From a bacterium (GTDB lineage Bacteria; CG2-30-53-67), in assembly GCA_024277725.1 (NCBI GenBank), contig JAJRUP010000097.1, forward strand, positions 264 through 64,263: a DNA stretch of 64,000 bases. The letters are read 5' to 3'. Of the stretch, positions 3,241 through 64,000 are shown piece after piece (position 1 is the first letter of the stretch; every line of letters begins with the position of its first letter). A program made the translations under genes and the position numbers. The notes beneath the pieces were generated by a model. That model saw nothing but the letters and a program-made list of their open reading frames with translations, did not search any database and had not been told where the DNA came from.

Positions 3241-4281
3241 TTATTCCCGAGCGGGTACACCCGTAAGGGATTTCCGGAGTTTCTCCAGATGGGAGATCAC
3301 TTTTCTTCCCCGGTCGGATTCACCCGGCGGGAGGAGCCGGAGAAAGGTCTGATAACTGTAGACCGCTTCGATGCCGCGGCCTTGGGCCTCAAGCGTCCGG
3401 GCAAGATTGAAATGAATGCGGTAATCCTGCGGGGTAAGCTGCAAAGCACGACGGTAGGCATTTCCCGCTGCATCCGGTTTCCCGGCCCGCCCCTCGGCAA
3501 CGCCCAGATTGGTCCAGGCGGCGGCATCTTCCGGATGGTCTGCAACAATTTTCTCCAGGAAAGGTACGGCACGTTCAGGCTCCCCCCGTTTGATGTAGAG
3601 CAAGGCGAGGTTGTTCAAACAACGGACCGAGTCCGGTTCGATGACGATTCCTTTCCGGAAGGCCTCCTCGGCGGCCTCTCCTTCCCCCATTTCCATCAAG
3701 GCCAGTCCGAGATTGTTATAGGCCCGGACATCAAGAGGGTTGATGGAAAGGGTTCGATTGAAGTTCAGGACGGCTTCCAGAAAATCTCCGTTTTCCAGCG
3801 CTTCCACCCCCCGGTTAAAGGTCGACAGTTCCAGCACTTTACGGGAAGTCTTTTCTGAGACCCCGGATGTCTGCGGCTTTGCTGCAGGGATTTGCGGGTG
3901 TGAGAGGGGTTCCCCGGCGACTGCAGGCGGAGCGGATGGGACTTCCTGTTGTGGAATCGTCGCCGAAGGGGAAACACCCTTTGAAACGCCGGCATGGACC
4001 GCTTCGGTCCGGTCCGGGGTCACAACGTTTTTCGATTCCGGAACAACGGCTTTTCCCTCCTCCCGGACAACTGCAGGTGGTGATGGAATGAGGGGCGTAT
4101 CCGCACTTGTCAGTTTTTCTTCCGGAACGGGTGGAAAGAGGAGCTTCAGGGCGACCACGACAAGGAGGAGCAGGAACGTGAGCCCTCCATAGGTCCACAG
4201 CCGTTTTTTGTGCAGGAAGGAATGTCCGGCAATCCGATCTTCTCCCCCCGGTGGGGTCAGTGTCGCTTCTTCGGTGTTCAT
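3241..4281 (-). CDS. TPR-repeat protein with N-terminal TM anchor and Pro-rich linker (possible secretin-associated PilF/Tgl-like factor)
   Basis: N-terminal TM segment GGLTFLLLLVVVALKLLF, a Pro/Ala-rich spacer, then C-terminal TPR repeats (AYNNLGLALMEMG..., CLNNLALLYIKRG..., AWTNLGVAEGRAG...). It is the last gene of the pilus/secretion operon, downstream of the secretin. Confidence 0.55.
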   Translation of the reverse strand: MNTEEATLTPPGGEDRIAGHSFLHKKRLWTYGGLTFLLLLVVVALKLLFPPVPEEKLTSADTPLIPSPPAVVREEGKAVVPESKNVVTPDRTEAVHAGVSKGVSPSATIPQQEVPSAPPAVAGEPLSHPQIPAAKPQTSGVSEKTSRKVLELSTFNRGVEALENGDFLEAVLNFNRTLSINPLDVRAYNNLGLALMEMGEGEAAEEAFRKGIVIEPDSVRCLNNLALLYIKRGEPERAVPFLEKIVADHPEDAAAWTNLGVAEGRAGKPDAAGNAYRRALQLTPQDYRIHFNLARTLEAQGRGIEAVYSYQTFLRLLPPGESDRGRKVISHLEKLRKSLTGVPARE

Positions 4282-5912
4282 GGTCGCCTCATGGACAGGC
4301 CGGGCGCCGTTTCACTGGAGAAGGAAATGACATCCGGGCTTCTGCCGACGGTTACGGCCGGTTGCAACAGAATCACAAGTTCCGTATTCTCTTTTTCCTC
4401 CTCTATGCGCTGGAAGAGCTTCCCCAGGACCGGGAGATCCCCCAATACCGGAACGGAGGTAACTGTTTTATCGGTTTTCTCCCGCATCAGACCGGCAATG
4501 ACGATGGTTTCGCCGTCTTTGACCCGCACCATGGTATCAACCTCACGGACGTCGAGGACGGGCGCATTGGCGAGGATGTCGGCGCCGACGGCACCGGGGG
4601 GAAAGGTCTTTTCCTCGATGAATTCGGTGATGCTGGGATGAATGTTCATGATGATCTCCCCGGTCCGGGAGATCTGGGGCGTTACGTCGAGGACCACACC
4701 GATGGTGTAGTCTTCACGCTCAACGGTAAAGTTTTCCTGCAGTACGCCCCCTTCGGAATTGACCTCCTTCTGGAGGGTGAAGAAGGTATCCTCCCGTCCC
4801 GCCTTGATGATCGCCTTCTGGTTGTTCAGGGTGGAGATCCGCGGACTGGAGAGGACATGAATCTTTCCCTGTGTGGCGATCATGTCGAGGAGGAGGGAGA
4901 TATCCCCCTTGGTGGCGCCGATCTGGAAAAACCCGGTATCGGGACTCAGGTTCTGGACCACCGAGGCGGGCTGCGGCTGGGTCTCCGCCAGACCGGTGGT
5001 CAGGTTCCCCACGAAGGAGCCCCGCAGGTTAGGCACCCCCGCCCAATCGATCCCGGCCTTGAAGGTATCGGAAAGAGTAACTTCGATGATCTTGGCCTGG
5101 ATCATGACCTGCCGCTGGATCGATCCTTCCACCGCTTCCAGAAAATCGGCAATCTCCATCAGCTTTTCCGGCAGCGCCGTGACGAGGATGGTTCCGGAAT
5201 GCTCGTTGATTACGAGTCTTTGTCCCTCTCCCTCTCCTGCGCCTCCTTCTTCGCTACTGCCGAACAGAATCACATTGAGTCCCTGGCGAATCTCTTCCCA
5301 GAGGGCCACCTTGTTCGTCGACTTGACCGTTCCATAGTCTCCCGAAGAGGTATCTTCTCCGCCTCGCCCACCACTGCTGACGATCAGCCCCGTTTCCCCG
5401 GTCCGGGTGGCAGTGATATAATTCAGGGTAAAGACCCGCGTTTCCATCCGGGGACGGATTACTTCAATGGTATTTTTCCGGATTGTATATTCCAGATGAA
5501 GGGGGGAGAGGATCGCCTGCAGGGCATCTCCCATGGTCACCTCTTTCAGGTCGATCGTAACCGTGTCATCAATGGCGGGATCGACAATCACATTGTAACG
5601 GCTGTCCCGGGCCAGGACCATGAGCACATCCTTGAGCTTCGTGTCCTGAACGGCGATGGAAAACCGTTCCCCTCCAATCCCCTTCATGGACTGCTTCTTA
5701 TCCATCTGCGGAAGGAGGTACTCGTCCAGAGGGGCAGCCTGAACCTTCGGCGGCGGCGCATACTGTTCCATGAGACCGGGTTTTTCGACCTCCTGTCCAC
5801 CGGCGGCACACCCCCAGAGCAGGAGGAGTACAACCCCAAACATTTTTCCGTATGTATTTTTCAAGAGGTTCCCTCCTTTGCGTTTACGGGGTTGCCCCCC
5901 CTTCCAGTGCAA
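4278..5912 (-). CDS. Secretin (GspD/PilQ family), probable lipoprotein
   Basis: Conserved C-terminal secretin domain (VVLDVTPQISRTGEIIMNIHPSITEF...). The N-terminal signal has LLLLWGC. The likely true start is the Met at about 5843 (MFGVVLLLLWGCAAG). Confidence 0.8.
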   Translation of the reverse strand: MHWKGGQPRKRKGGNLLKNTYGKMFGVVLLLLWGCAAGGQEVEKPGLMEQYAPPPKVQAAPLDEYLLPQMDKKQSMKGIGGERFSIAVQDTKLKDVLMVLARDSRYNVIVDPAIDDTVTIDLKEVTMGDALQAILSPLHLEYTIRKNTIEVIRPRMETRVFTLNYITATRTGETGLIVSSGGRGGEDTSSGDYGTVKSTNKVALWEEIRQGLNVILFGSSEEGGAGEGEGQRLVINEHSGTILVTALPEKLMEIADFLEAVEGSIQRQVMIQAKIIEVTLSDTFKAGIDWAGVPNLRGSFVGNLTTGLAETQPQPASVVQNLSPDTGFFQIGATKGDISLLLDMIATQGKIHVLSSPRISTLNNQKAIIKAGREDTFFTLQKEVNSEGGVLQENFTVEREDYTIGVVLDVTPQISRTGEIIMNIHPSITEFIEEKTFPPGAVGADILANAPVLDVREVDTMVRVKDGETIVIAGLMREKTDKTVTSVPVLGDLPVLGKLFQRIEEEKENTELVILLQPAVTVGRSPDVISFSSETAPGLSMRRP

Positions 5913-6369
5913 TCATTACGCCGTCTCCTCCGCCGGAAAGGATCACTCCCTTCGGTTCGATCCGGAGAATCTTGCGGCCGTAGACCTCTTCCCCCTCCCG
6001 GTAAATTTCGCCGTTCAGCAAGGCAATCCGACGCTCCCCGCTCAACAGGACCGCCTTGAGACGGGGCAATACATTGTCACGTCCCGTCGCGTCCGGGGCC
6101 GTTGCCGCACGCTCTTCCCCCGCCGGCACAAAGGGATTGCGCCCCAATCCCCCTAAAAACCGCAACCGGGCGGCGGCGGAAAGTCCGGAAGGTCGATGCT
6201 CTTCTTCTTTCGCCGCAGACCGGGTGTCTTCTTTCTCCACGAAGAGGGGTGTCGCCATCACCTGCCGAGTCATTGTTCGTGCCCGTTGCCGGAAAAAAGT
6301 ATAATTCCGGTAGACGGCAAAGAGAACCGCCGTACCGAGAAGAAAAAGAAAGACCTTGCTACGCAGCAT
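5884..6369 (-). CDS. PilP/GspC-like small periplasmic pilus/secretion assembly protein
   Basis: N-terminal signal/TM segment. The C-terminal beta-rich segment KAVLLSGERRIALLNGEIYREGEEVYGRKILRIEPKGVILSGGG resembles the PilP/GspC HR domain. Position between the PilO-like gene and the secretin supports the call. Confidence 0.45.
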   Translation of the reverse strand: MLRSKVFLFLLGTAVLFAVYRNYTFFRQRARTMTRQVMATPLFVEKEDTRSAAKEEEHRPSGLSAAARLRFLGGLGRNPFVPAGEERAATAPDATGRDNVLPRLKAVLLSGERRIALLNGEIYREGEEVYGRKILRIEPKGVILSGGGDGVMIALEGGATP

Positions 6370-6991
6370 CGGGCTTCTCCCCGGGGTCGGTGAAATAATA
6401 AAGTTCCATCTTCATCTCCACGGATAACCCGTTGGACGTCTTTTTAAGACGCACCTCCCGGATATCGATCAACCGCTTTCCTTCCCGAAGGGATTTGAGA
6501 AAGTGATAGAGGGTACGATAGGCACACCGGAACTGTATCTTGACCGGAATTCCGTACAGCACATGGGAGTCCGTATCTATCGGGACGGGCAATGCCCCGA
6601 GTGATGAACGAGTAAGGACTTCTTCCATGTTGATCTGCTCCACCGCACCCCTGAAATAAGATATCTCGTCAATTCCCAGGGATCGTCCCACCTCTTTCAG
6701 ATTTTCCAGATAGGTGTAAAACCCATCCCTCTCGGGAAGCATTTTCCGATCCTTAGCATCCCGTGCATCGAGCATACGGATCCGCTCCGGCGACAGGGTC
6801 TCCAACTCCTGTGAAACCTGTTCCATCTCTTTGCCCAGTCTTTTCATTCTTTCCTGCAACGCTCTCCATTCCCGAACCTTGGGGACGATCAGTACCATGA
6901 CCAGGATCAGGATCACCAGACCCGGAAGGGCCATCTGCACCAGGTTCTGGTGTTCATTCATCCATTGTTTCACGCCCGCCCTCTGTGCCAT
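6359..6991 (-). CDS. PilO/GspM-like inner-membrane pilus assembly protein
   Basis: TM helix LPGLVILILVMVLIV, a coiled-coil region, then a conserved C-terminal PilO-like fold. The start is chosen at MAQRAGVKQW, just downstream of the PilM/N stop; the ORF track extends further upstream and overlaps PilM/N. Confidence 0.55.
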   Translation of the reverse strand: MAQRAGVKQWMNEHQNLVQMALPGLVILILVMVLIVPKVREWRALQERMKRLGKEMEQVSQELETLSPERIRMLDARDAKDRKMLPERDGFYTYLENLKEVGRSLGIDEISYFRGAVEQINMEEVLTRSSLGALPVPIDTDSHVLYGIPVKIQFRCAYRTLYHFLKSLREGKRLIDIREVRLKKTSNGLSVEMKMELYYFTDPGEKPDAA

Positions 6992-6995
6992 GGGG

Positions 6996-8591
6996 TTATT
7001 CTCCGACGATTTCAAACCGGATTTTCCGCAGCACGGCAGAAGCGATTCGGACCCGTCCCGATTCCCCCTGATCGGCGCCGGGGCCAAGCCGTCCACGGAC
7101 GTTCCGGAAGAGTCCCGACCTCTTACACCGGTCCAGAAAGTCATCAAGGACGGACTCACCACCGGAATAATCGTGCAACACGATCCAACCCGACAGTTTC
7201 ATGGAAAAAGGGCCTCTCCCCCCCTGCACCACTAACTGATCGAGAACAACCGGGTCCGGCGTGTACAGACTCAGGGCCGCCAGAACATCCTCAGGAGGAA
7301 TCGAAGCAGGTGCCAGCCCCTGACAGATCGCCCGACGCAACAAACGGTCGGCTTGGGCCTGAAACATCCGGCGAACCCCCTGAAATCGGTCATCCACCTT
7401 GGCATAACCCTGTTGTAATCCACGCACCTCCAGTCGATCATGATGTACCTTCCAGGAAAGCTGCACATAGAGAAAAAGCACCAGGACCGCCGCCGCCGCA
7501 TAGGCGATCTTGGCGACCCGCTGGGCGGATCTTTTCCTCCATCGCAACTGCAGATCCAGGGGAAGGAGATTTGCCGTGGAAAAAATCGATGGACTTTTGG
7601 CCACACCCACAGGAAGATCGTATTCGCCCTCCTCCCGAGGTGCCGGTGCACAGGCAGGGGGGCGAGTCATCCCCGGCAATTCATCGAGGACCGTCAACGG
7701 CAGTTTCAGGTGCCGCTTCAGATCCTCCGCCAGATGGGGCACGTTCCCCCCTTCACCGGTCAACCAGATCTGTTCAATGGATTTCTTGTGTTGCTGCTTC
7801 ACATAGAGAAAGGAGCGATTGATTTCGGTGCAGAGACGTTCGAAAGGATCGTCCCCCTCTCCTGCAATCTCTTCGGCAACGGTGGTGATCTCCATGGCCT
7901 CCCCGCCCTCATGGAGGGGAGTAGATACGTCCACAGCGGACGCCCCTTCGAACTGTGAGAAATCAATCTCTTTCTTGATCATCCGGGAAAACAGAAAATG
8001 TTTGCCCTGAGTCACGATAAGATCAACACCGACGCGGGTGACATGGAGACGGGCCACCGTCTCCTCCGTTCCGAGGATCAAATCGGCCGAAGGAGCGATC
8101 GTCTGTACAAAGGGGATGGTCAGGAGATAATGAGGAACCAGCCCGGCACTCTCCATGAGCGAAACGGCATTCTGCACCGCCTCCACGGGTACCGCCGCTG
8201 CGATCACCTCGATTTTCGGGACCCCTTCCTGACGGTAATGGGTATTGATTTTGTAGACAGTCCGGGTATCCTGACGAACACCGAAGGCTTTGCCGGCCTC
8301 AAAGGGGATCACGGCATCGATTTCCTTTTGTGTCATCTTCGGCAGGGCGAAAGCCCGGTGGAGAATACGGGCATCGTGGAGAACCATGCCGGCGGCCATT
8401 CCGGCAAGGCCGTGGTCGCGGACGGATGCGGCCAATGCCTGCCGAACCGCCTCGGGATGATCCGAAGGCGCCTCAACCCGGAAGAGCCCTTCCAGGCAGG
8501 ACTTCTTTCGCGACCGCCGGAGGACGGCCAGGCGAATCGCATTTCCGCTCACCTCGATACCGACAACCGGTGCTGATGAAAAAAGATTCAC
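6996..8591 (-). CDS. PilM-PilN fusion protein (actin-like ATPase PilM N-domain plus PilN-like TM/periplasmic domain)
   Basis: The N-terminus MNLFSSAPVVGIEVSGNAIRLAV is typical of PilM/FtsA-like proteins. Around residue 340 there is a TM segment (VAKIAYAAAAVLVLFLYVQL) followed by a PilN-like C-terminal region. The total of 531 aa is much longer than a solo PilM. Confidence 0.65.
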   Translation of the reverse strand: MNLFSSAPVVGIEVSGNAIRLAVLRRSRKKSCLEGLFRVEAPSDHPEAVRQALAASVRDHGLAGMAAGMVLHDARILHRAFALPKMTQKEIDAVIPFEAGKAFGVRQDTRTVYKINTHYRQEGVPKIEVIAAAVPVEAVQNAVSLMESAGLVPHYLLTIPFVQTIAPSADLILGTEETVARLHVTRVGVDLIVTQGKHFLFSRMIKKEIDFSQFEGASAVDVSTPLHEGGEAMEITTVAEEIAGEGDDPFERLCTEINRSFLYVKQQHKKSIEQIWLTGEGGNVPHLAEDLKRHLKLPLTVLDELPGMTRPPACAPAPREEGEYDLPVGVAKSPSIFSTANLLPLDLQLRWRKRSAQRVAKIAYAAAAVLVLFLYVQLSWKVHHDRLEVRGLQQGYAKVDDRFQGVRRMFQAQADRLLRRAICQGLAPASIPPEDVLAALSLYTPDPVVLDQLVVQGGRGPFSMKLSGWIVLHDYSGGESVLDDFLDRCKRSGLFRNVRGRLGPGADQGESGRVRIASAVLRKIRFEIVGE

Positions 8592-8594
8592 CGT

Positions 8595-9800
8595 TTATCC
8601 TCCGGCCACACTCATCATCTTGTAGAGGGGCAAAAAAACCGACATGGCAACAGTCCCGACGACACCGCCTAAAAGCAGGATGATTAAGGGCTCCATAACC
8701 CCGAAGACCTTCTTGACCGTCATGGGGACCTCCCGGTCGTAGAAACCACTGAGTTTTCCCAGGGTGAAATCGAGACTCCCCGTCTCCTCTCCGATAGAGA
8801 CCATCCGGAGAAAAAGAGGCGGAAAAAGTCCCGTCTCCCGCATCGACACGGCAAGGCCTCGCCCTTCCTGTACCCTCTGCCGAACCTCCACAACGGCCTT
8901 CTCAAAGACCCGGTTGCCCGTGGTCTTTTCCATCAATTCCAAAGCATGGATGATATTGACACCGGAGCGGTAGAGGGAACTGAAGGTATGGGCGAAGCGC
9001 GCCAGGATGATCTTATGATTCAGACTGCCGAAAACGGGGACCATCAGTTTGACCCGGTCGTAGGCAACACGGGTGGCCGGAATCCTCTTGATCAACCGCA
9101 GGGCAAGGATCAACAGAATCAATCCGCCCAGAAGAAAATCCCAGGAATGGACCATGAAACCGCTGATGGCGATGATGATCTTGGTCGGGAGAGGAAGGGC
9201 AACATTACTCTTTTCGAAAATCACGAGAAACTTCGGAAGTACGACGGTAAAGATCAGGGCCACCAGACCGGCGATAGCCCAGAAGACAATGATGGGATAG
9301 AGCGTCGCCTGCTTGATCTGCCCCATCAGTTCCTCCTGCCACTCCAGATAGGTGATCAGGCTCTGGAAGGATTCCTCCATCTTTCCCGTACTCTCTCCGG
9401 CGGAGATCATCGCCACGTACAATTCAGAAAAAACCTGGGGATATTCTCCCATGGCGCTGGAAAGAGAAAGACCGGCCTCGATATTCCGGTGGATGTCTTC
9501 AATGACCTGGCGGAAAAAACCGGTTTCCGTCTGCTCCAGCAGGTCCTGCAGACCGGCAAGAATCGGGACTCCCGAGGAGAGAATCGTACCGAGATGAACG
9601 GTAAAGGTGATCAGGTCTTTCCGGCTGACTTTTTTCTTTGCGATCAGGGAGGCATTCTTCTTTAATTCGAACCCCGTGGGATAACACCCGATACCGGAAA
9701 GCTTCGCATAGAGATCTTCCGGATTCACGGCAGCCATGACTCCATTGATGACCTTTCCCTTTGTATTGCGCGCTTTATATTGGTACTCCGGCATCTTCAA
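8595..9800 (-). CDS. Type II secretion / type IV pilus platform protein (GspF/PilC family)
   Basis: 401 aa with three TM regions and duplicated GspF-domain motifs (e.g. TGKMEESF, ETGSLDFTL). Confidence 0.85.
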   Translation of the reverse strand: MKMPEYQYKARNTKGKVINGVMAAVNPEDLYAKLSGIGCYPTGFELKKNASLIAKKKVSRKDLITFTVHLGTILSSGVPILAGLQDLLEQTETGFFRQVIEDIHRNIEAGLSLSSAMGEYPQVFSELYVAMISAGESTGKMEESFQSLITYLEWQEELMGQIKQATLYPIIVFWAIAGLVALIFTVVLPKFLVIFEKSNVALPLPTKIIIAISGFMVHSWDFLLGGLILLILALRLIKRIPATRVAYDRVKLMVPVFGSLNHKIILARFAHTFSSLYRSGVNIIHALELMEKTTGNRVFEKAVVEVRQRVQEGRGLAVSMRETGLFPPLFLRMVSIGEETGSLDFTLGKLSGFYDREVPMTVKKVFGVMEPLIILLLGGVVGTVAMSVFLPLYKMMSVAGG

Positions 9801-9810
9801 ACCTCACGGA

Positions 9811-11514
9811 TCATGTCAACCGCATAACTTCGTCGATGGTGGTCAATCCCACGACAACCTTCTTGAACCCGTCATTCCGCATCGGCATCATCCCCTGCCC
9901 CATTGCACATTTTTGGATCTCACCGGAGGAAGCCCCCTGCAGGATTAATTCACGAACGGCATCATTGACGGGAAGGAGTTCATAGATGGCGGCCCGCCCC
10001 CGGTAACCGCTCTGGTTGCATTTGTCGCAGCCCGTCCCCCGGTAGAAGGAGAACCCCTCCATTTCTCCCAGACCCAACGCCTGTAGTTCTTCGGCAGGGA
10101 CCGTGTAGGATTCCTTGCAGTCGGGACAGATCTTCCGCACCAGCCGTTGGGCCAGGACCATGATAATGGAAGAGGCCAGAAGATAGGGATCGAGTCCCAT
10201 GTCGATGAGTCGGGGAAGGGCCCCCGCCGCATCATTGGTATGGAGGGTGGAGAAGACAAGATGCCCCGTCAGGGCAGCCCGGATCGCCATTTCCGCCGTC
10301 TCCGAATCCCGCATCTCCCCGACGAGGATCACATCGGGGTCCTGCCGCAGGAGGGAGCGTAAACCGGAGGCAAAGGTCATTCCGATCTCTTCGTTGATCT
10401 GGGTCTGGCGGATCACCGAAAGCTGGTATTCCACGGGATCCTCAAGGGTGGCAATCTTCTTGTCAAGAGAGTTGATATGGGCAAGAGCCGTGTAGAGGGT
10501 CGTCGTCTTGCCCGAACCGGTGGGGCCGGTAACGAGGATGATCCCGTGGGGGCGCTGGATCATCTCCGTAAAGATCTCGAGATTCTGCGGGGAGAAACCG
10601 AGGTCCTCCAACCCCAGGATCACCTTCGACTTGTCGAGAATCCGCATGACGACGTTTTCACCATGGATGGTGGGGAGGGTCGAGACCCGAAGATCAACAT
10701 CCTTCTTCCCGACCTGGAAGCGGATCTTTCCGTCCTGGGGGATGCGCGATTCAGCGATATTCAGATCGGCCAGGATCTTGATCCGCGCGATCACGGAAGG
10801 CTGCAGTTGCTTCGGCAGCAGAAAACCCTGCTGTAGGGCACCGTCGAGACGATAACGAACGCGCAGTACCTTCTCATCCGGTTCAAAATGAACGTCCGTG
10901 GCTCCCTCGTTGACCCCCCGGAGGATCAGCTGATTCACCAATCGAATGATCGGAGCTTCCTGAGCCTCCTGATCGGCACGGTCCTTCCCCAATCCCTCGG
11001 CAAGGGCCTGATCGACGACTTCATCGATGGAGCCGGAAAATCCGTAATATTTGTTGATCGCCTCAAGGACATCCTTTTCCGAGGCGGCAATGACATTGAC
11101 CTCCAGCCCCGACTGGTTCTGGACTTCGTCAACGGCCACAACATCAAAAGTATCGACCATGGCAACAGTCAGGATATCCGACTCCCGGGAGATGGGGATG
11201 AGTTTGTATTTCCGGGCAATCTCCTCGGTGATCAGTTTCACGGCGTCAAGATCGATCTCGACGAATTCCAGGTTTTTCTGGACCGTCCCCGATTCCTGGG
11301 CCAGAGCCGCCTCGATCTGCTCCTGGGTCACGAAGCCGAGGCGGACCAGTATCTGGCCCAACATCTCCCGGGTCCGCTTCTGCTCCTTCAGGGAGATCCG
11401 GAGCTGTTCCGGGGTCAAAAGTCCCGCTTCAATCAACCGTTCGCCTAAAGGACGTGTTTTTGGGGGTGCACTCGCTGTCATCAGAAGAGGGCTTTCTTTC
11501 CAGGCACGGCTCAA
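9811..11514 (-). CDS. Type II secretion / type IV pilus assembly ATPase (GspE/PilB family) with N-terminal GspE_N (MshEN) domain
   Basis: Walker A box GPTGSGKTT, a tetracysteine zinc motif (CPDC...CDKC), and an N-terminal GspE_N helical domain (LGERLIEAGLLTPEQLRISLKEQ). The start may be the internal Met at about 11481. Confidence 0.9.
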   Translation of the reverse strand: MSRAWKESPLLMTASAPPKTRPLGERLIEAGLLTPEQLRISLKEQKRTREMLGQILVRLGFVTQEQIEAALAQESGTVQKNLEFVEIDLDAVKLITEEIARKYKLIPISRESDILTVAMVDTFDVVAVDEVQNQSGLEVNVIAASEKDVLEAINKYYGFSGSIDEVVDQALAEGLGKDRADQEAQEAPIIRLVNQLILRGVNEGATDVHFEPDEKVLRVRYRLDGALQQGFLLPKQLQPSVIARIKILADLNIAESRIPQDGKIRFQVGKKDVDLRVSTLPTIHGENVVMRILDKSKVILGLEDLGFSPQNLEIFTEMIQRPHGIILVTGPTGSGKTTTLYTALAHINSLDKKIATLEDPVEYQLSVIRQTQINEEIGMTFASGLRSLLRQDPDVILVGEMRDSETAEMAIRAALTGHLVFSTLHTNDAAGALPRLIDMGLDPYLLASSIIMVLAQRLVRKICPDCKESYTVPAEELQALGLGEMEGFSFYRGTGCDKCNQSGYRGRAAIYELLPVNDAVRELILQGASSGEIQKCAMGQGMMPMRNDGFKKVVVGLTTIDEVMRLT

Positions 11515-11572
11515 ACGACCGGACGTGGAAATACCGTCGACCGGAGGGGAGAATAATCACCGGTCGACATCA

Positions 11573-12193
11573 TTATTTCACGCGGAAACCGATGTCGTCG
11601 CCCCCCAGCGTCGGACTGTCGGAGATCAGCTGCTTCACATCGGTATTGATCACTCCATCGGGACCGGCGGAAAGAACAAACGTCGCCTGATATCCGCCTG
11701 TGCCATTTTTCCAGAGACCGATCACATTACAGTAGTATTTGTTTCCCCAGGGATCGCTTTTGATCTCGTTGATATAGGGCCCCTTCCATCGGAATTCCCC
11801 GCTCGTCGGATAGGGATTGCCGCCCCCTTCGGGATCGTTCAGGATCAACTGATTCTCAAAGGTGTCCCTTCGGGTCGCGCCCCAGGTCACCCAGCCGCCG
11901 GTATCGGTCCCGCTGTGACCGGGAGTATTTCCGTCGGACGTCTCCAGAACATAGAGATAATTGCTGCTCCCGGAGCTGGGGTCGTCATCGCTGGGCCATT
12001 TCCCCGTATCCTTGTAGAAATCCGCGATGGCCGCCCCCAAGACCTGGACATCGTTCTTGGCCCGGGCGATCTTGGAGTCATCAATGTTCTTGATGATCGA
12101 CGGGGTCATGATCGCCGCCAGGATCGCGATAACAGCAATGACCACGATAATCTCCACCAATGTGAACCCTTCCTGCCTGCCAAACCTTTTCAT
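11573..12193 (-). CDS. Type IV pilin / pseudopilin (prepilin-type N-terminal cleavage and methylation domain)
   Basis: MKRFGRQEG|FTLVEIIVVIAVIAILAAI is a class III signal with Gly at -1 and Glu at +5. An RBS AGGGGAGG precedes the ATG at 12193. The ORF track lists a longer 217-aa form. Confidence 0.8.
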   Translation of the reverse strand: MKRFGRQEGFTLVEIIVVIAVIAILAAIMTPSIIKNIDDSKIARAKNDVQVLGAAIADFYKDTGKWPSDDDPSSGSSNYLYVLETSDGNTPGHSGTDTGGWVTWGATRRDTFENQLILNDPEGGGNPYPTSGEFRWKGPYINEIKSDPWGNKYYCNVIGLWKNGTGGYQATFVLSAGPDGVINTDVKQLISDSPTLGGDDIGFRVK

Positions 12194-12515
12194 AGTGCAC
12201 CTCCCCTGATTTTTTTTCGACGCCACTGTAAACCGGGATCGTGGTCATCTTGCCGCAACAGCCGAAGATCACGGAAGCCTCCGGGCTTCATCCTTTTTTT
12301 GCAGGTTTCCGATAAAAAATCACACAGATATCCATCTTTGTTCGGATGAGTATCGCTCTTATCGGCATTACAACCTCCAAACTTTAGGAAAGCCTTTTCA
12401 AATGAGTAAAAATTTCCCCCAATTCCCCCCAAAAAAAGGTTCACCCCACGATACAAATGGAGTACAATTAGAAAAGTCAAGGAGTGAATATCTCTTCAAC
12501 TTTCAGGAGCGGAAC

Positions 12516-13569: not shown

Positions 13570-14496
13570 ATGGAACCGAAAGGGCGGAGCTGTATCAAAA
13601 CCACACGACAAACACACTCATCCACCATGCCAACCCTTCAGGGGGTAAAATTCTTCAAATTGCAGCTTGGTCTTCTGAGCCTCGGTTTGCTGATCCTTTA
13701 CGCCCCCGTCTTTCCCGAACTCTGGCGGGACTGGAATCAGGACCCCAATTACGGTTACGGTATCTTTGTTCCATTCATCTCCGCGTTTTGCGTCTGGCAC
13801 AAAAGAAAAGAAATCGCACAAATTCGTCCGGTCCCTTACGGCCCCGGATTGCTCATCGTTCTCTTCGGGTTGTCGATCTACCTGATCGGAATCGCAGGGA
13901 ACGAACTCTTTTCCACACGCGTCTCTTTCATCGTGGTTCTCCTCGGAATCCTCATGACAATCTGGGGAAAACGAGGGGCAAAAACCGTATCATTTCCTCT
14001 TTGTTATCTTTTTCTGATGATCCAGTTACCTTACATTCTTTACTATGCCATCGCATCGCCCATGAAACTCTTCGCCACGAAATGGGCTGTTTACGCCGTC
14101 GACATGCTTCACATCACCGTTCACCATCAAGGAAACATCATTTATCTTCCGAATACCACTCTGGAGGTCGCCAATGCCTGCAGCGGACTGCGTTCCCTGA
14201 CCTCACTTCTGACCTTCGGGATCGCCTTCGCCTACATCGCCCAGCAACGCTTCCTTCCCCGAGCGTTCCTGGTCGCCGCCATCTTTCCCATTGCCGTGAT
14301 CAGCAACATTCTCCGGATCGTCGTTACGGCCCTTCTGGCCGTCTACAGGGGACCGGAAGCGGCGCAAGGCTTTCTGCATGAAACCTCCGGGATTGTGGTC
14401 TATACGACCGCCACAATTCTTATCTTCGGGACCAATGAAGTTCTCCGGAGTATCCGCCGGTGGACGGCACAACCGCAATCGATGAAGCCGTCATGA
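13570..14496 (+). CDS. xrtA: Exosortase (XrtA/EpsH family) polytopic membrane transpeptidase
   Basis: Eight or more TM helices and conserved exosortase motifs (ANACSGLRSL, NILRIVVTALL). Alternative start at 13627 (MPTLQGVKFF). Adjacent to EpsI, with a PEP-CTERM protein in the window. Confidence 0.85.
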   Translation: MEPKGRSCIKTTRQTHSSTMPTLQGVKFFKLQLGLLSLGLLILYAPVFPELWRDWNQDPNYGYGIFVPFISAFCVWHKRKEIAQIRPVPYGPGLLIVLFGLSIYLIGIAGNELFSTRVSFIVVLLGILMTIWGKRGAKTVSFPLCYLFLMIQLPYILYYAIASPMKLFATKWAVYAVDMLHITVHHQGNIIYLPNTTLEVANACSGLRSLTSLLTFGIAFAYIAQQRFLPRAFLVAAIFPIAVISNILRIVVTALLAVYRGPEAAQGFLHETSGIVVYTTATILIFGTNEVLRSIRRWTAQPQSMKPS

Positions 14497-15131
14497 ACAG
14501 ATCCACTCTCTATTTTTCAGTGATTTTCATCCTCATGCTTGTCGTCTTTCTGTACGGACGGTCACTGTCACATCCCATTCCGGTACCCCTCGCACGGGAT
14601 CTTTCGACCTTTCCGCACCAAATCGGCGCATGGAAAAGCGAAGAAATCCCCCTGGCGCCGGCCATCCTGCAAAAGCTCGGCACCGATGAGATTCTGAACC
14701 GGGCCTACCGGTCCCCCTTCGGACAAACCCTTTGGCTCTACATCGGGTACTACCCGATGCAACAGAATGGTGCCCAGATTCATTCCCCCTTGCATTGTTA
14801 TCCGGGCAGCGGTTGGACCCCGGTCCAGCGGGACGTCGTTACCGTTCCGATCGGCAATCGGAAAGTTCATGTCAACCGGATGGTGATCCGAAACGGAAAC
14901 CAGAAACGACTCGTCACGTACTGGTACCAGGCACAAAACCGGGTGATCGCAAACGAGTATCTCCAACGGCTAAATTTGATTGTGACGGCTTTTTGGAAAC
15001 ATCGGACAGACGGCTCGCTCATCAGAATTTCAATGGCCGTTCATGATGATCGGCCCGAGGAAAACTGGAAGGCAATCGTTTCTTTCATGCAGGACATGTA
15101 TCCCCAACTCATCGCATATATTCCACAGTGA
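14493..15131 (+). CDS. epsI: EpsI-family exosortase-associated protein
   Basis: N-terminal TM segment, then conserved EpsI motifs (WLYIGYYPMQQNGAQIHSPLHCYPGSGW). The start overlaps the exosortase stop by 4 nt (ATGA). Confidence 0.8.
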   Translation: MNRSTLYFSVIFILMLVVFLYGRSLSHPIPVPLARDLSTFPHQIGAWKSEEIPLAPAILQKLGTDEILNRAYRSPFGQTLWLYIGYYPMQQNGAQIHSPLHCYPGSGWTPVQRDVVTVPIGNRKVHVNRMVIRNGNQKRLVTYWYQAQNRVIANEYLQRLNLIVTAFWKHRTDGSLIRISMAVHDDRPEENWKAIVSFMQDMYPQLIAYIPQ

Positions 15132-59710: not shown

Positions 59711-62044
59711 CTACACCCTCCCCGAAGGTCTTTTCCTCCGGCAGGCCGTGAAGACCGGAGGCAGCAGGACCCACCAGAGATCCAAGGGGTTGCCCGGCCG
59801 GCGTGACAGCGCGCATCCCCCGCCTCCTCCGCCCCCGGAGGAACCCGGGTCTCCGCCGCCGTTCACCGTGTCCGACACCGAGGCGGCCTGGGGAATCCCC
59901 ACGTAGCCGGGGTCCGAGATCAGGCCGTTGGTCATGCCGTCATCGTCCCCGGTCCCGCCGTCGGCGAGGGCAAAAGATATTTGATTGCCGCTCACCTGGG
60001 AGGTGAGTTTCCGAAACCCGTTGTTGTCGTCGTACTTCCAGTACTCGGCATCGTCAGGCAGAACGTCCGGCATCACAATGGTTACCAATACGATTTCGCC
60101 GACCGAAATGCCTGCAATCTGATATTCAACTCCGCCGTAGGGAAAACTCACATTCGGCTGACTTCCGCTTGAAACAACGGTCTCAATAAATTCGGTTTGA
60201 GCCAGTCTCGCCGTCGGATGGTTGATGACCACGGACATCTTCCCCTGCGGAGTCGCCATGGTTGCCGCTTGGTTATCCACCCGATCGAGAGTTCCATCCT
60301 GATCGGAATCTACGCCATCTTCATCAAGATCGGAAACTCCGTCATCGTCTGAGTCCGTATCCAATGCATCGACAACACCGTCCGCATCGGTATCTGCCGG
60401 GGTGTCGGAGGAGCCCCACTCCGCCAAGTCAGAGGCATCATCATGATCGCTATCCGACAAATTCGGGTTGAGTCCGTAGGTCGTCTCATCAATATTCAAA
60501 ATTCCATCCATGTCCTGATCGCCGGTGGGGCCGTCTGCATCATCCATGTCGATATAGTTGAGTGCTCCGTCCTTGTCTGCGTCATTGGTCCCCTCGGCAA
60601 CATCCGGTTTCCCGTCGTTGTCGGAATCGAGATCAAGGGCGTCAATCGTTCCGTCGGCATCGGTATCGATCGGAGCATCCCCGGCCCCCCATTCGACAAA
60701 GTCGGAGATTCCGTCGCCGTCGGAATCGGTGACCCCCGGATTCAGTCCGTAAGCAAATTCTTGCCCATTCGTCAGTCCATCTTCATCCGAATCCATTTCC
60801 GGATCATAAACGGTAATTGTTTTTTCAACGGTCGTTTCTCCCCCATCATTATCGGTCACACGGAGAGAGACTGTGAAACGGCCCGACGTGGCAAAGATAT
60901 GCGAAGGGTTAGCAGTATATGAAGAAGACTGGTCGCCGAAGTCCCAGACATATCGGGTGACCGTCCCGTCACTGTCGCTTGCGTTCGCCGTGAAATTTAT
61001 CGTCAAAGGCATTAATCCGCTCGTTGTATCGGCTGAGATTGAGGCAGTCGGCAACACATTGGGCCGATCCGTCACGACAATCGAGACAGAGGCAATATCC
61101 GTCGCTCCCTGGTCATCGGTGACCGTCAACGTCGCCGTATAGGTGCCGGACGCTGTATAGGTATGTGTCGGAGCTGCACCGGATCCGCTGTCCCCATCGC
61201 CGAAGCTCCAGGCATAGGAATCAATCGTCCCATCCGTATCGATCCCCAGACCGTAGAACCGGACGGAGAGTGGAGCCTCCCCCTGCGTGGGCGTGGCGCT
61301 TGCCGAGGCGGTCGGCGGAGCATTGCCCGGAGACGCCGCCTGCTCCACAACGACCCGGACCGTATCCGTACTGCTCGCCTGCCCGTCGCTCACGGTCAAC
61401 TGGAAAACCAGGGTCTGGCCGGAGAGGGCGGAGGTGAGCGAAAAAAACGGTGTGGCCGTAGTACTCCCCAAGAGATTCACCGTCCCGCCGGAGATCTCTA
61501 CCCACGAATATGTCAGGCTGTCCCCGTCCGGATCGGAACTCCCGCTCCCGTCGAGGTTGATCTGGATACTCCCTCCCGACAGTTGCGATTGTGCAACCGT
61601 CTGGTCCGAACCGGCCGAGGCCGTGGGGGCATGGTTGACCGCTGCCGTTTCCGTGACCGTCACCTCATTGGAATAACCGCTCTCGTTTCCGCTTGTGTCA
61701 TAGGAGGTAACCGCAAGATGGTAGGTAACATCTGCCGTCAGGCCGGAGAGGACGAATTCCGGATTCGCCGGGTCGGAAAGGGATGTCACCGTGACCGAGA
61801 TCGGGGAATCCCCCTCTGTAAGGCCCGTGCCGTTGTAGGGAGCGCCCGCACCGTCCGTATCATAATAGAGCCTGTACCCGGCAAGATCGGTACAGACGCT
61901 TCCATCCGAGTTGGTCGTCGTTTGATCCCAGAAAACCGTTACGGAGGCCTCGGCAAACCCTGCACTGATGAATAATACCATGAAACAAAGGATCAAAGTA
62001 ATCAAATATTGACTTCGGATTGTCCTCATTTGAAAAGCTTTCAT
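59711..62044 (-). CDS. Secreted FN3 / PKD-domain / thrombospondin-type-3 Ca-binding-repeat protein with C-terminal Gly-run/Cys - TM - RRKR tail (putative sorting signal)
   Basis: Signal peptide; PKD motifs (WSFGDGDSGSGAAPTHTYTASGTYTATLTVTDDQGA, WDFGDQSSSYTANPSHIFATSGRFTVSLRVTDNDG). About 12 DxDxDG TSP3-like repeats. C-terminal GGGGGGGCALSRRPGNPLDLWWVLLPPVFTACRRKRPSGRV. Confidence 0.75.
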   Translation of the reverse strand: MKAFQMRTIRSQYLITLILCFMVLFISAGFAEASVTVFWDQTTTNSDGSVCTDLAGYRLYYDTDGAGAPYNGTGLTEGDSPISVTVTSLSDPANPEFVLSGLTADVTYHLAVTSYDTSGNESGYSNEVTVTETAAVNHAPTASAGSDQTVAQSQLSGGSIQINLDGSGSSDPDGDSLTYSWVEISGGTVNLLGSTTATPFFSLTSALSGQTLVFQLTVSDGQASSTDTVRVVVEQAASPGNAPPTASASATPTQGEAPLSVRFYGLGIDTDGTIDSYAWSFGDGDSGSGAAPTHTYTASGTYTATLTVTDDQGATDIASVSIVVTDRPNVLPTASISADTTSGLMPLTINFTANASDSDGTVTRYVWDFGDQSSSYTANPSHIFATSGRFTVSLRVTDNDGGETTVEKTITVYDPEMDSDEDGLTNGQEFAYGLNPGVTDSDGDGISDFVEWGAGDAPIDTDADGTIDALDLDSDNDGKPDVAEGTNDADKDGALNYIDMDDADGPTGDQDMDGILNIDETTYGLNPNLSDSDHDDASDLAEWGSSDTPADTDADGVVDALDTDSDDDGVSDLDEDGVDSDQDGTLDRVDNQAATMATPQGKMSVVINHPTARLAQTEFIETVVSSGSQPNVSFPYGGVEYQIAGISVGEIVLVTIVMPDVLPDDAEYWKYDDNNGFRKLTSQVSGNQISFALADGGTGDDDGMTNGLISDPGYVGIPQAASVSDTVNGGGDPGSSGGGGGGGCALSRRPGNPLDLWWVLLPPVFTACRRKRPSGRV

Positions 62045-62057
62045 AAGTCTACCTCAC

Positions 62058-62093
62058 TACAAAAAAAGGCCGCCAGAAAAAATCCTCTGGCGG
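62058..62093 (-). terminator. Intrinsic-terminator-like hairpin plus U7 immediately upstream of the RBS of the PKD/TSP3 gene (putative riboswitch expression platform)
   Basis: Minus-strand RNA GGCCGCCAGAGGAUUUUUUCUGGCGGCC followed by UUUUUUU, then GUAGUGAGGUAGACUUAUG (RBS and start). Confidence 0.6.
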
Positions 62094-62139
62094 CCCGGCT
62101 GACATAGATGCAGTCATCAGATCACGGGAATCAGGTTAC

Positions 62140-62256
62140 AGGGAAAGTCCAATCATTCAACCGATCCTGTTGCCTGTTTCCCAACGACTGGTTGCTGCCT
62201 CTTTAGTCCCGAAGCTCTGCGCCCCCCGGTTTCCCGAGGTTTGCTCTGAGCAAAGG
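62140..62256 (-). promoter_or_regulatory. Candidate c-di-GMP-I (GEMM) riboswitch aptamer in the 5' leader of the PKD/TSP3 gene
   Basis: Minus-strand RNA: ..CUCAGAGCAAACC-UCGGGAAACCGGGG-GGCGCAGAGCU-UCGGGACUAAAGAGGCAGC... Compare the Vc2 aptamer ..CACAGGGCAAACC-[P1 hairpin with GAAA loop]-GGACGCAAAGCC-UCCGGCCUAAACC.. The GCAAACC box, a GNRA (GAAA) capped P1, a GGCGCAGAGC box and a CUAAAG receptor-like element are all present. Confidence 0.45.
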
Positions 62257-62484
62257 AAAAGTTTTTTATTTCAATATCTTACATGTCCTTTTCTCCACAA
62301 AAAAACCCAGCATACCGAAAAAGGCATCCTGGGTAAAAAACCTCGGGCATTATGCTGCCCACTATTTTACCACTTCGGGAGGTTATGACCGACCTTCTGT
62401 TCAAGGCCTCACAACTCTGCGACCCGGCTCTTCCAAGCCGGGCTGCCTTTATCGGTGGTTCTATACTAAACATTACCCTCACTC

Positions 62485-62512
62485 GTCAAAAATGTCAATG
62501 TCAATTTTTGAC
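62485..62512. promoter_or_regulatory. Perfect 9-bp inverted repeat GTCAAAAAT-N10-ATTTTTGAC (operator-like)
   Basis: Seen directly in the sequence. The spacer gtcaatgtca itself repeats GTCAA. Confidence 0.4.
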
Positions 62513-63066
62513 ACCTTGAGTCGAATCCAAATGCAAGGAGAATGCCAAACTATCGCTTAAACCCTTTTGTTTTCAAAACCCCTTTATTTCCCATATGTTG
62601 TATGGCTTACAATATGTCCATACAAAATCTGGAGAGAAATGCCAACAATTTATGCATGTTTTCTTGTACAATTTGCAGGAAAGACCGTATCGGATTAGAT
62701 ACGTTTGCAATCTTTGAGAAGAGTGCCGCAATAGGGATGAATCAGCATAACTCATAAATTGTATACAGAAGAAAAATAGTGTCTTTCCGTTGGACTCTAC
62801 CTGCTAAACTATGCCATAATGGCCCTACATTCCTTATGATCATAATGGTTTCAGCAATATTTCCCGGTTTTCTCACATTTATTTTCATCCCTGGGAGATC
62901 GATCCGGATCAGCCCCGGCAGGCGGTCAACGCGGTGACCCGGTTCCGGCACTACCACAACCTGGACCGGATGGAAGAAAAGATCGAAAGATTGTTAAACG
63001 AATTTTCCTTCACGACTATTTCCGAGTTGTTGCATCCCCTGTTTCCCGGTGTTTGCAACAGCTTGA

Positions 63067-64000
63067 ATGAAACCGAGTCCCGAAATGATTCTTGATGCAC
63101 TCTTAACGTTGAGTTTGATAATCACCGGCATTGTCTGTATCCTCCTGTTATCACAACGGAATAAAGGATTGCCGCTTCGAACCTTAGGACAAACAGCAGG
63201 CTTACATGCCGCATGGATTTTCGGTTTGCTCATTTTTGCACGCCGATCGCTGCCATTTCTGCATTTGCTGCCACTCCGGATCGTCCTCTCCATCTTATCG
63301 ATGACCTTCTATACTTCTGTGTTGTCTTCTTTCCATATCGTCCGGTTTCGCGAGCCTTTGCTGCCGGAATTTCAAAAAGTTTCAACCTTTTTTGCAGCCC
63401 TTATGGCGTCCATTTTCGGACTGCTGTCCCTCCATCCAAGTCTACTCAGCACCCTCGACTTTACGATCGATCAACACATGGAACTTCGTTTCGGGCCCGC
63501 CGGCTATTATTTCAGTTGCGCCATGATTCTTTGCCAGTTGATCGTTCTGTTTCAGATGGAACAGGTTTACCGATCTTCTTCGACGGCACAGCGGATTCGA
63601 CTCAAATTCATGATTCTTGGAATCAGCTGCCAAAGCCTTTATCTCCTTTTCTTGGGGGGGCAGATCCTCTTAATGCATTCGCTGGTCATCGACTATCTGC
63701 ATTCAGCCGCCGTTGTAACGACACTCTGCTGGTCCATGATTCTCTGGGCCATCCTGCGTCATCGATTGTTTCTCACGGATCTTTATATTTCTCAACAGAT
63801 CACCTTTTCCTCCGTTGCCCTTTTCGGCATTGGGACTTATCTTCTGATTGCAGGCACCATCGGCTTTTTCATCCGAAAACAACCCAGCGAATGGCATCTG
63901 CTCTTCATCATCATCTACGTGGCCCTGACCATCATCCTCTTCGCCATGCTTCTCTATTCCCCGGTCCTGCAGCGGCGGATCAAACATTTTATCCATACCC
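63067..64000 (+). CDS. Polytopic membrane protein, 3' end beyond window (possibly the membrane sensing domain of a histidine kinase such as PrsK); not in the supplied ORF track because no stop is reached
   Basis: Open frame from ATG 63067 (or 63085) to the window end, about 310 codons with 8 or more hydrophobic helices (ILDALLTLSLIITGIVCILLL, IFGLLIFARR..., ILGISCQSLYLLFLGG...). Confidence 0.45.
   Translation, partial: MKPSPEMILDALLTLSLIITGIVCILLLSQRNKGLPLRTLGQTAGLHAAWIFGLLIFARRSLPFLHLLPLRIVLSILSMTFYTSVLSSFHIVRFREPLLPEFQKVSTFFAALMASIFGLLSLHPSLLSTLDFTIDQHMELRFGPAGYYFSCAMILCQLIVLFQMEQVYRSSSTAQRIRLKFMILGISCQSLYLLFLGGQILLMHSLVIDYLHSAAVVTTLCWSMILWAILRHRLFLTDLYISQQITFSSVALFGIGTYLLIAGTIGFFIRKQPSEWHLLFIIIYVALTIILFAMLLYSPVLQRRIKHFIHT

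Follow-up and report, generated by a model that had tools for sequence, protein, structure and literature searches.

A conserved Gly-run-Cys tail, a candidate variant of Cys-type sorting signals not covered by current models, in the exopolysaccharide locus of a probably Nitrospirota-like bacterium

What kind of signal terminates a large secreted protein encoded in an exopolysaccharide (EPS) locus that also carries an exosortase? The protein in question, 777 residues long, is encoded on the minus strand at 59711..62044 of a 64,000-nucleotide stretch of bacterial DNA (GenBank assembly GCA_024277725.1, contig JAJRUP010000097.1, positions 264 to 64,263; hereafter the window, to which all coordinates refer unless a related locus is named). 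It ends in a run of seven glycines, a cysteine, a polar spacer, a short hydrophobic segment and a basic cluster. This tail belongs to a conserved family and is more than a chance anchor. Judged by its sequence, it would not form a category of its own, but would add to the Cys-type C-terminal signals a new variant for which no model exists at present. With somewhat better than even confidence, we propose that it is such a variant and that its Cys is probably modified and the tail cleaved by a CPBP-type protease encoded at an unlinked site.

Anatomy and conservation of the tail

The gene and the parts of its product, all on the minus strand, are:

59711..62044: gene for a 777-residue PKD / TSP3-like / choice-of-anchor U protein with a Cys-type tail (open reading frame (ORF) list and translation, Pfam, NCBIfam)
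61946..62044: Sec-type signal peptide, residues 1-33, MKAFQMRTIRSQYLITLILCFMVLFISAGFAEA (read from the sequence)
60785..61636: three PKD domains, residues 137-420 (PF18911, 140 bits; PF00801, 98 bits; PF22352, 89 bits)
60245..60793: Asp-rich TSP3-like repeats of the calcium-binding type, residues ~418-600 (DxDxDG-type repeats visible in the translation)
59897..60160: choice-of-anchor U domain, residues 629-716, directly before the tail (NCBIfam NF041766)
59813..59836: signature motif, Gly7 run (residues 737-743) and invariant Cys744 (alignments A1-A4)
59780..59812: polar spacer ALSRRPGNPL and near-invariant Asp755, at Cys+11 (alignments A3, A4)
59741..59779: short hydrophobic segment LWWVLLPPVFTAC with invariant Pro762, at Asp755+7 (alignments A2-A4)
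59711..59740: basic cluster RRKR, followed by PSGRV and the stop codon (translation)

The C-terminus reads GGGGGGGC-ALSRRPGNPL-D-LWWVLLPPVFTAC-RRKR, and ORF translation thus bears out the sequence-only reading of a secreted 777-residue protein with a Gly7-Cys motif, a transmembrane (TM)-like segment and an RRKR end. The start that this reading gave for the tail, 59711, also stands; its end moves from 59840 to 59842, as the last 43 residues (SSGGGGGGGCALSRRPGNPLDLWWVLLPPVFTACRRKRPSGRV) with the stop codon take up two nucleotides more. The hydrophobic segment has a mean hydropathy of 1.63 over its 13 residues. In the entire protein, Cys occurs only at positions 20, 51, 744 and 768, the last of which sits where the hydrophobic segment ends and is not conserved. 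A frameshift artefact was considered and rejected, since neither alternative reading frame of the tail stretch holds a sorting-like sequence. At the N-terminus, a basic n-region, a hydrophobic core and a cleavage-like site between AEA and S (MKAFQMRTIRSQYLITLILCFMVLFISAGFAEA followed by S) would direct the protein into Sec-dependent export. The choice-of-anchor U assignment is secure (NF041766, 86.4 bits, E 1.8e-24, above the membership cut-off of 32), and the Pfam model TSP3_bac stays below threshold on the repeats (13 bits, cut-off 25).

Relatives were collected with HMMER by searching a complete set of 1.84 billion cluster representatives, the last 220 residues of the protein serving as query. 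This search returned 2972 relatives at E<=1e-3, and many of the best ones end in a Gly-run-Cys tail. In four alignments of such tails (A1, A2, A3 and A4) the Cys and the Gly just before it are invariant, usually followed by [AS]-L-[SA]; an Asp, often within Pro-Asp-Gly, stands at Cys+10 or +11 in at least 90% of the rows of A4 and in most of those of A3; and a Pro exactly 7 residues past this Asp, within the Leu-rich hydrophobic segment, is invariant in A2, A3 and A4. Every family member carries a basic cluster in its tail. The aligned tails are 20-48% identical to that of the window, and nonetheless Cys and Pro are kept throughout and Asp nearly so.

A profile hidden Markov model (HMM) built from 16 relatives, with the window left out, scores the window tail at 43.6 bits, and the best of 2000 composition-preserving shuffles of the same tail at 15.1 bits, which excludes a chance anchor. 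No further ORF end of the window or of the 12 related loci scanned first exceeds 8 bits, and the best non-member in later loci reaches 10.6 bits, leaving one Cys-type tail per locus in the window and the related loci scanned. Together with the alignments, this substantiates across the family the tripartite order of motif, hydrophobic helix and basic cluster that had been read from the single sequence. All full-length orthologues keep the tail (P0178, 78% identity; P0004, 73%; P0179, P0180, P0181-P0183 and P0186), and it recurs on other architectures, namely S8 peptidases (P0018, P0155, P0240) and a CBM96 protein (P0014). The sequence-only reading had allowed for a tail unique to this one protein or for an ordinary membrane anchor; being common to all orthologues and many paralogous architectures, it is neither. 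Among the close full-length orthologues, the window tail scores lowest and has two consecutive Pro residues in its short hydrophobic segment, and is still intact.

A word-index homology search with the C-terminal 180 residues gave no matches; a profile search with the 44-residue tail listed four matches, with candidates swamped by Gly-run words; and a profile search of genome contigs found at least four distant loci, with the TSP3 pattern dominating the matches listed, among which one Nitrospirota locus has a Cys tail and the others have IPTL- and GlyGly-type tails. Two pairs of different tail proteins from the same sample (P0178/P0155 and P0014/P0002) were considered as a sign of several substrates per genome; neither GC content nor tetranucleotide profiles suffice to place the partners of a pair in one genome.

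Relationship to known sorting signals

Cys-type signals were first defined in 2023 as four families predicted to be substrates of CPBP-family proteases (bioRxiv 10.1101/2023.06.07.544157). Their known ranges are Myxococcota and Bradymonadales for MYXO-CTERM, some Pseudomonadota for JDVT-CTERM, Synergistetes for Synerg-CTERM and Thermococcales for CGP-CTERM. For MYXO-CTERM, experimental validation followed in 2025: the protease MrtX cleaves the signal in a Cys-dependent manner, and surface display depends on the type II secretion system (T2SS) (PMC11980579).

We compared the window tail and the tails of 29 relatives with the sorting models of NCBIfam release 20.0 (June 2026) at a reporting limit of E<=10. 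JDVT-CTERM (NF033191) matches 17 of the 29 (best E 3.2e-12) and MYXO-CTERM (TIGR03901) eight, weakly; each of the remaining models matches three at most. The resemblance to MYXO-CTERM pointed out in the sequence-only reading is real in so far as it is found in these eight tails; it is sub-threshold, and the window tail itself has no match. That the tail is not of the PEP-CTERM, GlyGly-CTERM, LPXTG or PGF-CTERM type, as had also been stated, agrees with the absence of a match between it and any of these models. Scored individually, five of the nine tails closest to that of the window reach 9.2-20.1 bits with JDVT-CTERM, one matches MYXO-CTERM only and three match nothing. The best individual MYXO-CTERM scores, 18.8 bits for P0053 and 16.8 bits for P0002, lie below the curated cut-off of 20 bits; P0053, with a DP-LLP-type tail, scores 45.8 bits with JDVT-CTERM, for which the cut-off is 27 bits.

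The closest likeness is to JDVT-CTERM and its protease MrtJ (NF033192), the signal whose model performs best on the relatives' tails. JDVT-CTERM has a single Cys and, nine residues on and inside the helix, a near-invariant DP (Haft 2023, 10.1101/2023.06.07.544157), and in 16 of 17 cases its genes adjoin mrtJ, which encodes a CPBP-family protease (10.1101/2023.06.07.544157). The window family shares the Gly-rich lead-in, the single invariant signature Cys (Cys744 in the window), an acidic residue about 10 positions past it, a Leu-rich hydrophobic segment with Pro, and the basic cluster. It differs in that the DP-LLP of JDVT-CTERM is replaced by D-x6-P, often as PDG, with Asp755 of the window followed by Leu instead of Pro, and in that the stretch from Cys to Asp is polar. 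Furthermore, the window tail does not reach the score cut-off, no adjacent CPBP protease was found beside the family's genes, and, unlike JDVT-CTERM, which is described for Pseudomonadota, the taxon-labelled relatives are Nitrospirota metagenome-assembled genomes (MAGs).

With MYXO-CTERM and MrtX (PMC11980579), the window family has in common the tripartite build, the invariant Cys, the placement on large surface adhesin-like proteins, a sorting enzyme (a presumed one for the window family) unlinked to its substrates and, in the window locus, a T2SS-type system. The MYXO-CTERM TM segment is free of charged and Pro residues and the motif is frequently GCGC (10.1101/2023.06.07.544157), whereas in the window family only one Cys follows the Gly run, Pro is invariant within the segment and Asp stands at its boundary; the family also scores below the 20-bit cut-off and occurs in bacteria other than Myxococcota and Bradymonadales. 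MYXO-CTERM goes together with a myxosortase (MrtX, MrtC or MrtP; core model NF040914) and with many substrates per genome; for the window family, the 64 kb of the window and flanks of up to 10 kb in relatives show one tail per locus. Synerg-CTERM (TIGR04564) shares with the window family its invariant Cys and, within a Leu-rich helix, the invariant Pro (10.1101/2023.06.07.544157); it is shorter and has no spacer, and its model matches none of the 29 relatives' tails. The sequences thus describe what appears to be a combination of JDVT-like Cys-to-Asp spacing and Synerg-like embedded Pro with a polar spacer and a fixed D-x6-P. As membership tests failed for each named family, we regard the tail as a probable further flavour of the Cys-type class.

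The position behind choice-of-anchor U

Homologues of the protein end in strikingly different ways. Among the 150 best choice-of-anchor U relatives of the 2972, the tail types are:

Gly-run-Cys with TM segment and basic cluster: 40 of 150
Other TM segment with basic cluster: 42 of 150
Without TM/basic tail, or truncated: 34 of 150
Short Gly-run-CF[IVL], without TM segment: 16 of 150
GlyGly-like (Gly run, no Cys): 10 of 150
IPTL-CTERM-like: 4 of 150
PEF/PGF-CTERM-like: 4 of 150

The label 'choice-of-anchor' denotes interchangeable tails behind a common domain, and NCBI names the relative P0016 by its domain only, as 'choice-of-anchor U domain-containing protein'. The tally argues that the position after choice-of-anchor U is an interchangeable slot for sorting signals. 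Because homologues swap tails behind the same domain, the window tail would likewise be a functional sorting module and not an incidental anchor.

The short type in this tally, a Gly run and Cys-Phe-[Ile/Val/Leu] with 6-13 further residues and neither helix nor basic cluster (for instance GGGGGGGCFISTGIGSLVAR and GGGGSCFITTAMGQ), is found in P0013, P0024, P0030, P0033, P0042, P0054-56, P0058, P0060, P0063, P0068, P0103, P0134, P0140 and P0142, and on PKD proteins as well (P0202, P0212, P0215, P0250). Two examples tested gave no NCBIfam match; this C-terminus may be a distinct short Cys-based signal.

Genomic context and the search for a sorting enzyme

The window is an EPS locus with many glycosyltransferases and asparagine synthases and with PrsT (336.7 bits, cut-off 312). 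Its features that bear on protein sorting are:

13570..15131, plus strand: exosortase (13570-14496; TIGR02602, 173.8 bits, cut-off 105.6) and EpsI (14460-15131; TIGR02914, 149 bits)
2252..2848, minus strand: canonical PEP-CTERM protein with tail PIPEPATMLLFGISLLTVAGYGRYRLNRE (weak matches to the PepA and NF038129 families)
4278..12226, minus strand: T2SS / type IV pilus-like cluster (secretin, GspF-like protein, MshE/GspE-like ATPase, GspG-like pseudopilin)
63085..63999, plus strand: PrsK, the XrtA/PEP-CTERM histidine kinase, N-terminal 304 residues, cut by the window end (tblastn, 60-61% to PrsK of locus L002)
62877..63044, plus strand: remnant of an XrtA-system polysaccharide deacetylase, residues 222-277 of 289 (tblastn, 78.6% over 56 residues to the deacetylase of L002)

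Both the exosortase and the canonical PEP-CTERM tail had been recognized in the sequence-only reading. Apart from this exosortase, no sorting enzyme was found in the window. The scores of the exosortase with the subtype models for XrtD, XrtW (the best, both being fused models) and XrtA (182 against 208 bits) are all sub-threshold, and since every subtype score is below its cut-off, the enzyme is of no defined subtype. Exosortase and EpsI are encoded in two overlapping ORFs in different frames. The 64-kb window holds a single tail of the Cys type and a single one of the PEP-CTERM type. The T2SS-like cluster scores 235.7 bits for MshL, 321 for GspF and 619-623 for PilB/GspE, each below the equivalog cut-off; its GspE/PilB-like ATPase (9811-11514, minus strand) has an N-terminal MshE-related domain that binds cyclic di-GMP (c-di-GMP) (NF053729, 66.4 bits, cut-off 38).

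The deacetylase remnant and PrsK are divergent from the tail gene and lie directly upstream of it. In related loci, the tail protein is again found beside the deacetylase (TIGR03006), PrsK (TIGR02916) or both (L002, L027, L012 and L011), with the PrsK proteins of L002, L011 and L012 scoring 414-437 bits with TIGR02916 (cut-off 300) and the deacetylase of L002 scoring 398 bits with TIGR03006; in L013, PrsR (TIGR02915) is one gene away. The tail genes of L001 and L009/L010 have housekeeping neighbourhoods with no XrtA genes. In the window, the rest of the deacetylase is absent, and the region 62500-62900, with a GC content of 35-39% and only short ORFs (at most 71 residues), suggests a deletion or replacement scar.

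Neither a rhomboid nor a second exosortase turned up in the window or in the 10-kb surroundings of roughly ten related loci, and with no CPBP gene found there either, the second processing system suggested in the sequence-only reading stays a hypothesis. A polytopic membrane protein of ~515 residues encoded immediately after PrsK was considered as a candidate sorting enzyme and set aside for its likeness by eye to a permease. It is found in L002 (3152-4720, minus strand), L012 (6023-7555, plus strand) and L027 (4633-6174, minus strand) with 76-86% identity between loci, has no sequence match in Pfam, NCBIfam or the PDB, and carries what we take, by eye, to be an NCS2/AzgA-type permease motif.

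As to the organism, the signs favour Nitrospirota: the cluster of P0007 includes proteins of Nitrospirae bacterium CG2_30_53_67, and L005, a Nitrospirota MAG, has a tetranucleotide similarity of 0.91 to the window.

Leader RNA and promoter of the tail gene

The tail gene is preceded by an elaborate leader, all on the minus strand:

62086..62255: aptamer of a c-di-GMP-I riboswitch, within the 5' leader (Rfam RF01051, 50.9 bits, E 1e-8, gathering threshold 35)
62062..62112: terminator-like hairpin with U-run (expression platform), with a 13-bp stem, between the aptamer and the ribosome-binding site/ATG
62339..62460: structured RNA 'R1', upstream of the riboswitch (covariance model, covariation)
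62533..62547: sigma-54-type -24/-12 box TGGCATTCTCCTTGC, with one mismatch to TGGCAC-N5-TTGC

The aptamer, on the strand of the gene and with an 87-nucleotide insertion in one hairpin, is the only gathering-level Rfam match in the window. RF01051 lies directly upstream of homologous genes in seven of 11 loci scanned (L001, L002, L003, L009, L011, L014 and L027); of the remainder, L004 and L005 lack sequence ahead of the gene that could be scanned, and in L012 and L013 no match was seen. The 5' half of the terminator stem (GGGCCGCCAGAGG pairing with CTGGCGGCCT, followed by TTTTTTT) overlaps the 3' strand of the aligned aptamer; the element may be an ON-switch. As the ATPase of the T2SS-like cluster has the NF053729 domain and the tail gene this riboswitch, both secretion and the tail protein appear to be c-di-GMP-responsive.

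The ATG at 62044, 42 nucleotides past the aptamer and 17 past the terminator hairpin, gives a complete signal peptide. The public annotation (P0177, 756 residues) corresponds to residues 22-777, starting at Met22 (region 61982-62044, minus strand), so that the signal peptide would lose its n-region and half of its hydrophobic core.

Further upstream, R1 extends over ~120 nucleotides, followed by U-tract hairpins down to ~62298. It has no Rfam match at E<=10 and is more strongly conserved than the coding sequence, and by eye its layout is GEMM-I-like, with a P1 stem, a GGAA-tetraloop hairpin, CGCAGAG and a second hairpin. A covariance model made from three copies scores 94-99 bits in L001, L011, L014 (twice) and L016, and the copies that it finds are always upstream of a c-di-GMP-I aptamer. 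Positions of R1 in related loci include:

L001: 7438-7559
L002: 9594-9715
L011: 208-330
L014: 4117-4238, and 3069-3191 on the minus strand
L027: 9553-9674

Nine base pairs show compensatory changes, and the covariation score is 0.319, compared with 0.193 for shuffles and at most 0.093 for slid alignments, in an alignment that was fitted to the model and so favours the structure. Possible identities of R1 are a variant aptamer for cyclic dinucleotides and a new kind of leader element.

The sigma-54-type box (TGGCAT-N5-TTGCA) is placed ~500 nucleotides upstream of the ATG and is kept upstream of orthologues in L027 (-534), L002 (-494) and L013 (-106). Since the number of matches to such a box across the window is not above chance, it is this conservation that serves as evidence for it. 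The box would fit control by the sigma-54-dependent regulator PrsR.

Discussion

What can be said about the fate of the tail? Modelling the individual steps on the myxosortase (PMC11980579) and on Haft's comparative analysis (10.1101/2023.06.07.544157), we infer membrane topology, Cys modification, cleavage, enzyme identity and export route by analogy. Sec would export the protein by way of its N-terminal signal peptide, and the C-terminal helix would anchor it transiently in the inner membrane, RRKR facing the cytoplasm; the invariant Cys would then be modified, probably lipidated, and a CPBP/Rce1-type intramembrane protease encoded elsewhere in the genome would remove the helix. The folded PKD / calcium-binding protein could finally reach the cell surface, possibly via the T2SS-like machine of the same locus, and there, induced by c-di-GMP, act in the matrix or in adhesion as part of the XrtA-associated EPS system. 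The riboswitches, the EPS/exosortase locus and the c-di-GMP-binding domain of the T2SS-like ATPase fit such a surface or biofilm role.

Several observations weigh against this proposal. The window tail matches no NCBIfam sorting model even at E<=10, and the tails of its closest relatives fall below the cut-offs of both JDVT-CTERM and MYXO-CTERM. About 10 polar residues separate the Cys from a hydrophobic segment of only ~13 residues with two Pro; in CGP-CTERM, as in PEP-, PGF- and GlyGly-CTERM, the signature abuts the TM segment with no spacer (Haft preprint). No CPBP (PF02517) gene was found in the window, either among selected ORFs searched with Pfam and NCBIfam or in a motif scan of multi-pass membrane ORFs, and no CPBP protease was found within 10 kb in L001, L002, L009/L010, L011, L012, L013, L014 and L027. 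The missing adjacency is the weaker evidence because the positive control for it failed: the JDVT-like P0053 and P0049 are encoded on short contigs or have no protease neighbour. Moreover, nearly all tails examined are from proteins with the choice-of-anchor U domain, so that independence of the tail from the domain is weakly shown, two fragments (P0153, P0154) giving weak support for a tail apart from it. Finally, the recurrent linkage to the XrtA system would also be in keeping with the involvement of an exosortase.

An exosortase is indeed at the centre of the main rival explanation, according to which the tail is a divergent exosortase substrate, with (P)D(G) at the start of the hydrophobic segment acting like PEP or VPDSG and with the Gly run and Cys as accessories. 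The neighbourhood speaks for it: the tail gene adjoins PrsK in a locus with exosortase, EpsI and PrsT, the synteny with PrsK, XrtA deacetylase or PrsR recurs in L002, L027, L011, L012 and L013, and the tripartite layout and biofilm/EPS context are those of PEP-CTERM proteins (TIGR02595, XrtA system). Likewise, many relatives have xPDG at the membrane boundary, as in VPDSG-type signals, and the window exosortase fits no defined subtype. Yet an exosortase in the genome is necessary for such a signal, not sufficient, and here it has a textbook PEP-CTERM substrate in the window already. The tail itself has no Pro-Glu-Pro and no match to the PEP-CTERM model, which excludes PEP-CTERM identity proper; among the 29 relatives' tails, that model matches one (E=3.8) and the VPDSG, VPLPA and VPEID models none. 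It is the Cys that is invariant in place of the PEP motif, whereas Pro precedes the Asp in about half of the tails and not in the window (PLD-L). With some members outside XrtA neighbourhoods (L001, L009), with the tail gene under a c-di-GMP riboswitch of its own, and with XrtA synteny that may mean co-regulation and not processing, we consider sorting by an exosortase unlikely.

Less likely than this main rival are an uncleaved anchor and a rhombosortase signal. As a permanent inner-membrane anchor, the tail would use Cys, Asp and Pro for folding, acylation or oligomerization, an improbable reading that draws on the lack of an identified processing enzyme in the contexts examined, on a hydrophobic segment and basic cluster that would suffice for stop-transfer, and on the single copy per locus. 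Fixed spacing of Cys, Asp and Pro in tails of about 30-45% identity is, however, unexpected for a generic anchor, homologues fill the choice-of-anchor U slot with recognized cleavable sorting signals, the 13-residue segment with its two Pro would make a poor permanent TM helix, and a tether to the inner membrane would ill suit a 700-residue PKD / calcium-binding adhesin whose diderm host has an EPS and T2SS locus. That the tail is a GlyGly-CTERM-like signal, with a rhombosortase cutting within the Gly run, is very improbable in spite of the long Gly run and the Gly-run tails without Cys, resembling GlyGly-CTERM, on some domain homologues, as the GlyGly-CTERM model TIGR03501 matches none of the 29 relatives' tails at E<=10, the Cys and ~10 polar residues part the Gly run from the hydrophobic segment, and none of the loci showed a rhomboid gene.

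Returning to a Cys-type signal as the preferred explanation, its most far-reaching form would be a fifth Cys-containing sorting class, G(n)-C-x10-D-x6-P-hydrophobic-basic, borne by surface proteins under the control of c-di-GMP riboswitches and tied to the PrsK/PrsR-XrtA system in Nitrospirota-like bacteria, with either a new myxosortase-like clade of CPBP proteases or, more surprisingly, an exosortase as its enzyme; we put this forward tentatively, as a conjecture more likely to fail than to hold.

As a conserved variant that no model matches, found in another lineage, the tail would widen the range of Cys-type sorting chemistry, and the alignment of the family's tails is a clean seed for a new HMM. 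If it were true that an exosortase sorts the tail, this would be the first link of Cys-type signals to exosortases. The system is a tractable case, with one substrate gene per locus, with Cys, Asp and Pro that can be mutated, and with c-di-GMP as a known inducer. It also joins three biofilm systems that are usually treated apart, namely c-di-GMP riboswitches, the PrsK/PrsR-exosortase EPS system and the anchoring of surface proteins. The tandem leader, in which an unrecognized GEMM-like RNA precedes a canonical c-di-GMP-I riboswitch, may interest riboswitch researchers independently.

Additional observations

Two large secreted proteins of the window (15816-20237, plus strand, and 57870-59531, minus strand) have a common C-terminal module of ~70 residues with two DxDxDG-type dockerin/EF-hand-like repeats, ending in ...GDV.P....APDG.ID..D.L.IMR.A.GL.S.; the 553-residue protein with this module has no match in Pfam or NCBIfam. 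A flippase-like multi-pass ORF (38047-39552, plus strand) is interrupted by an in-frame TAA at 39058-39060 into parts of 337 and 162 residues and may be a pseudogene.

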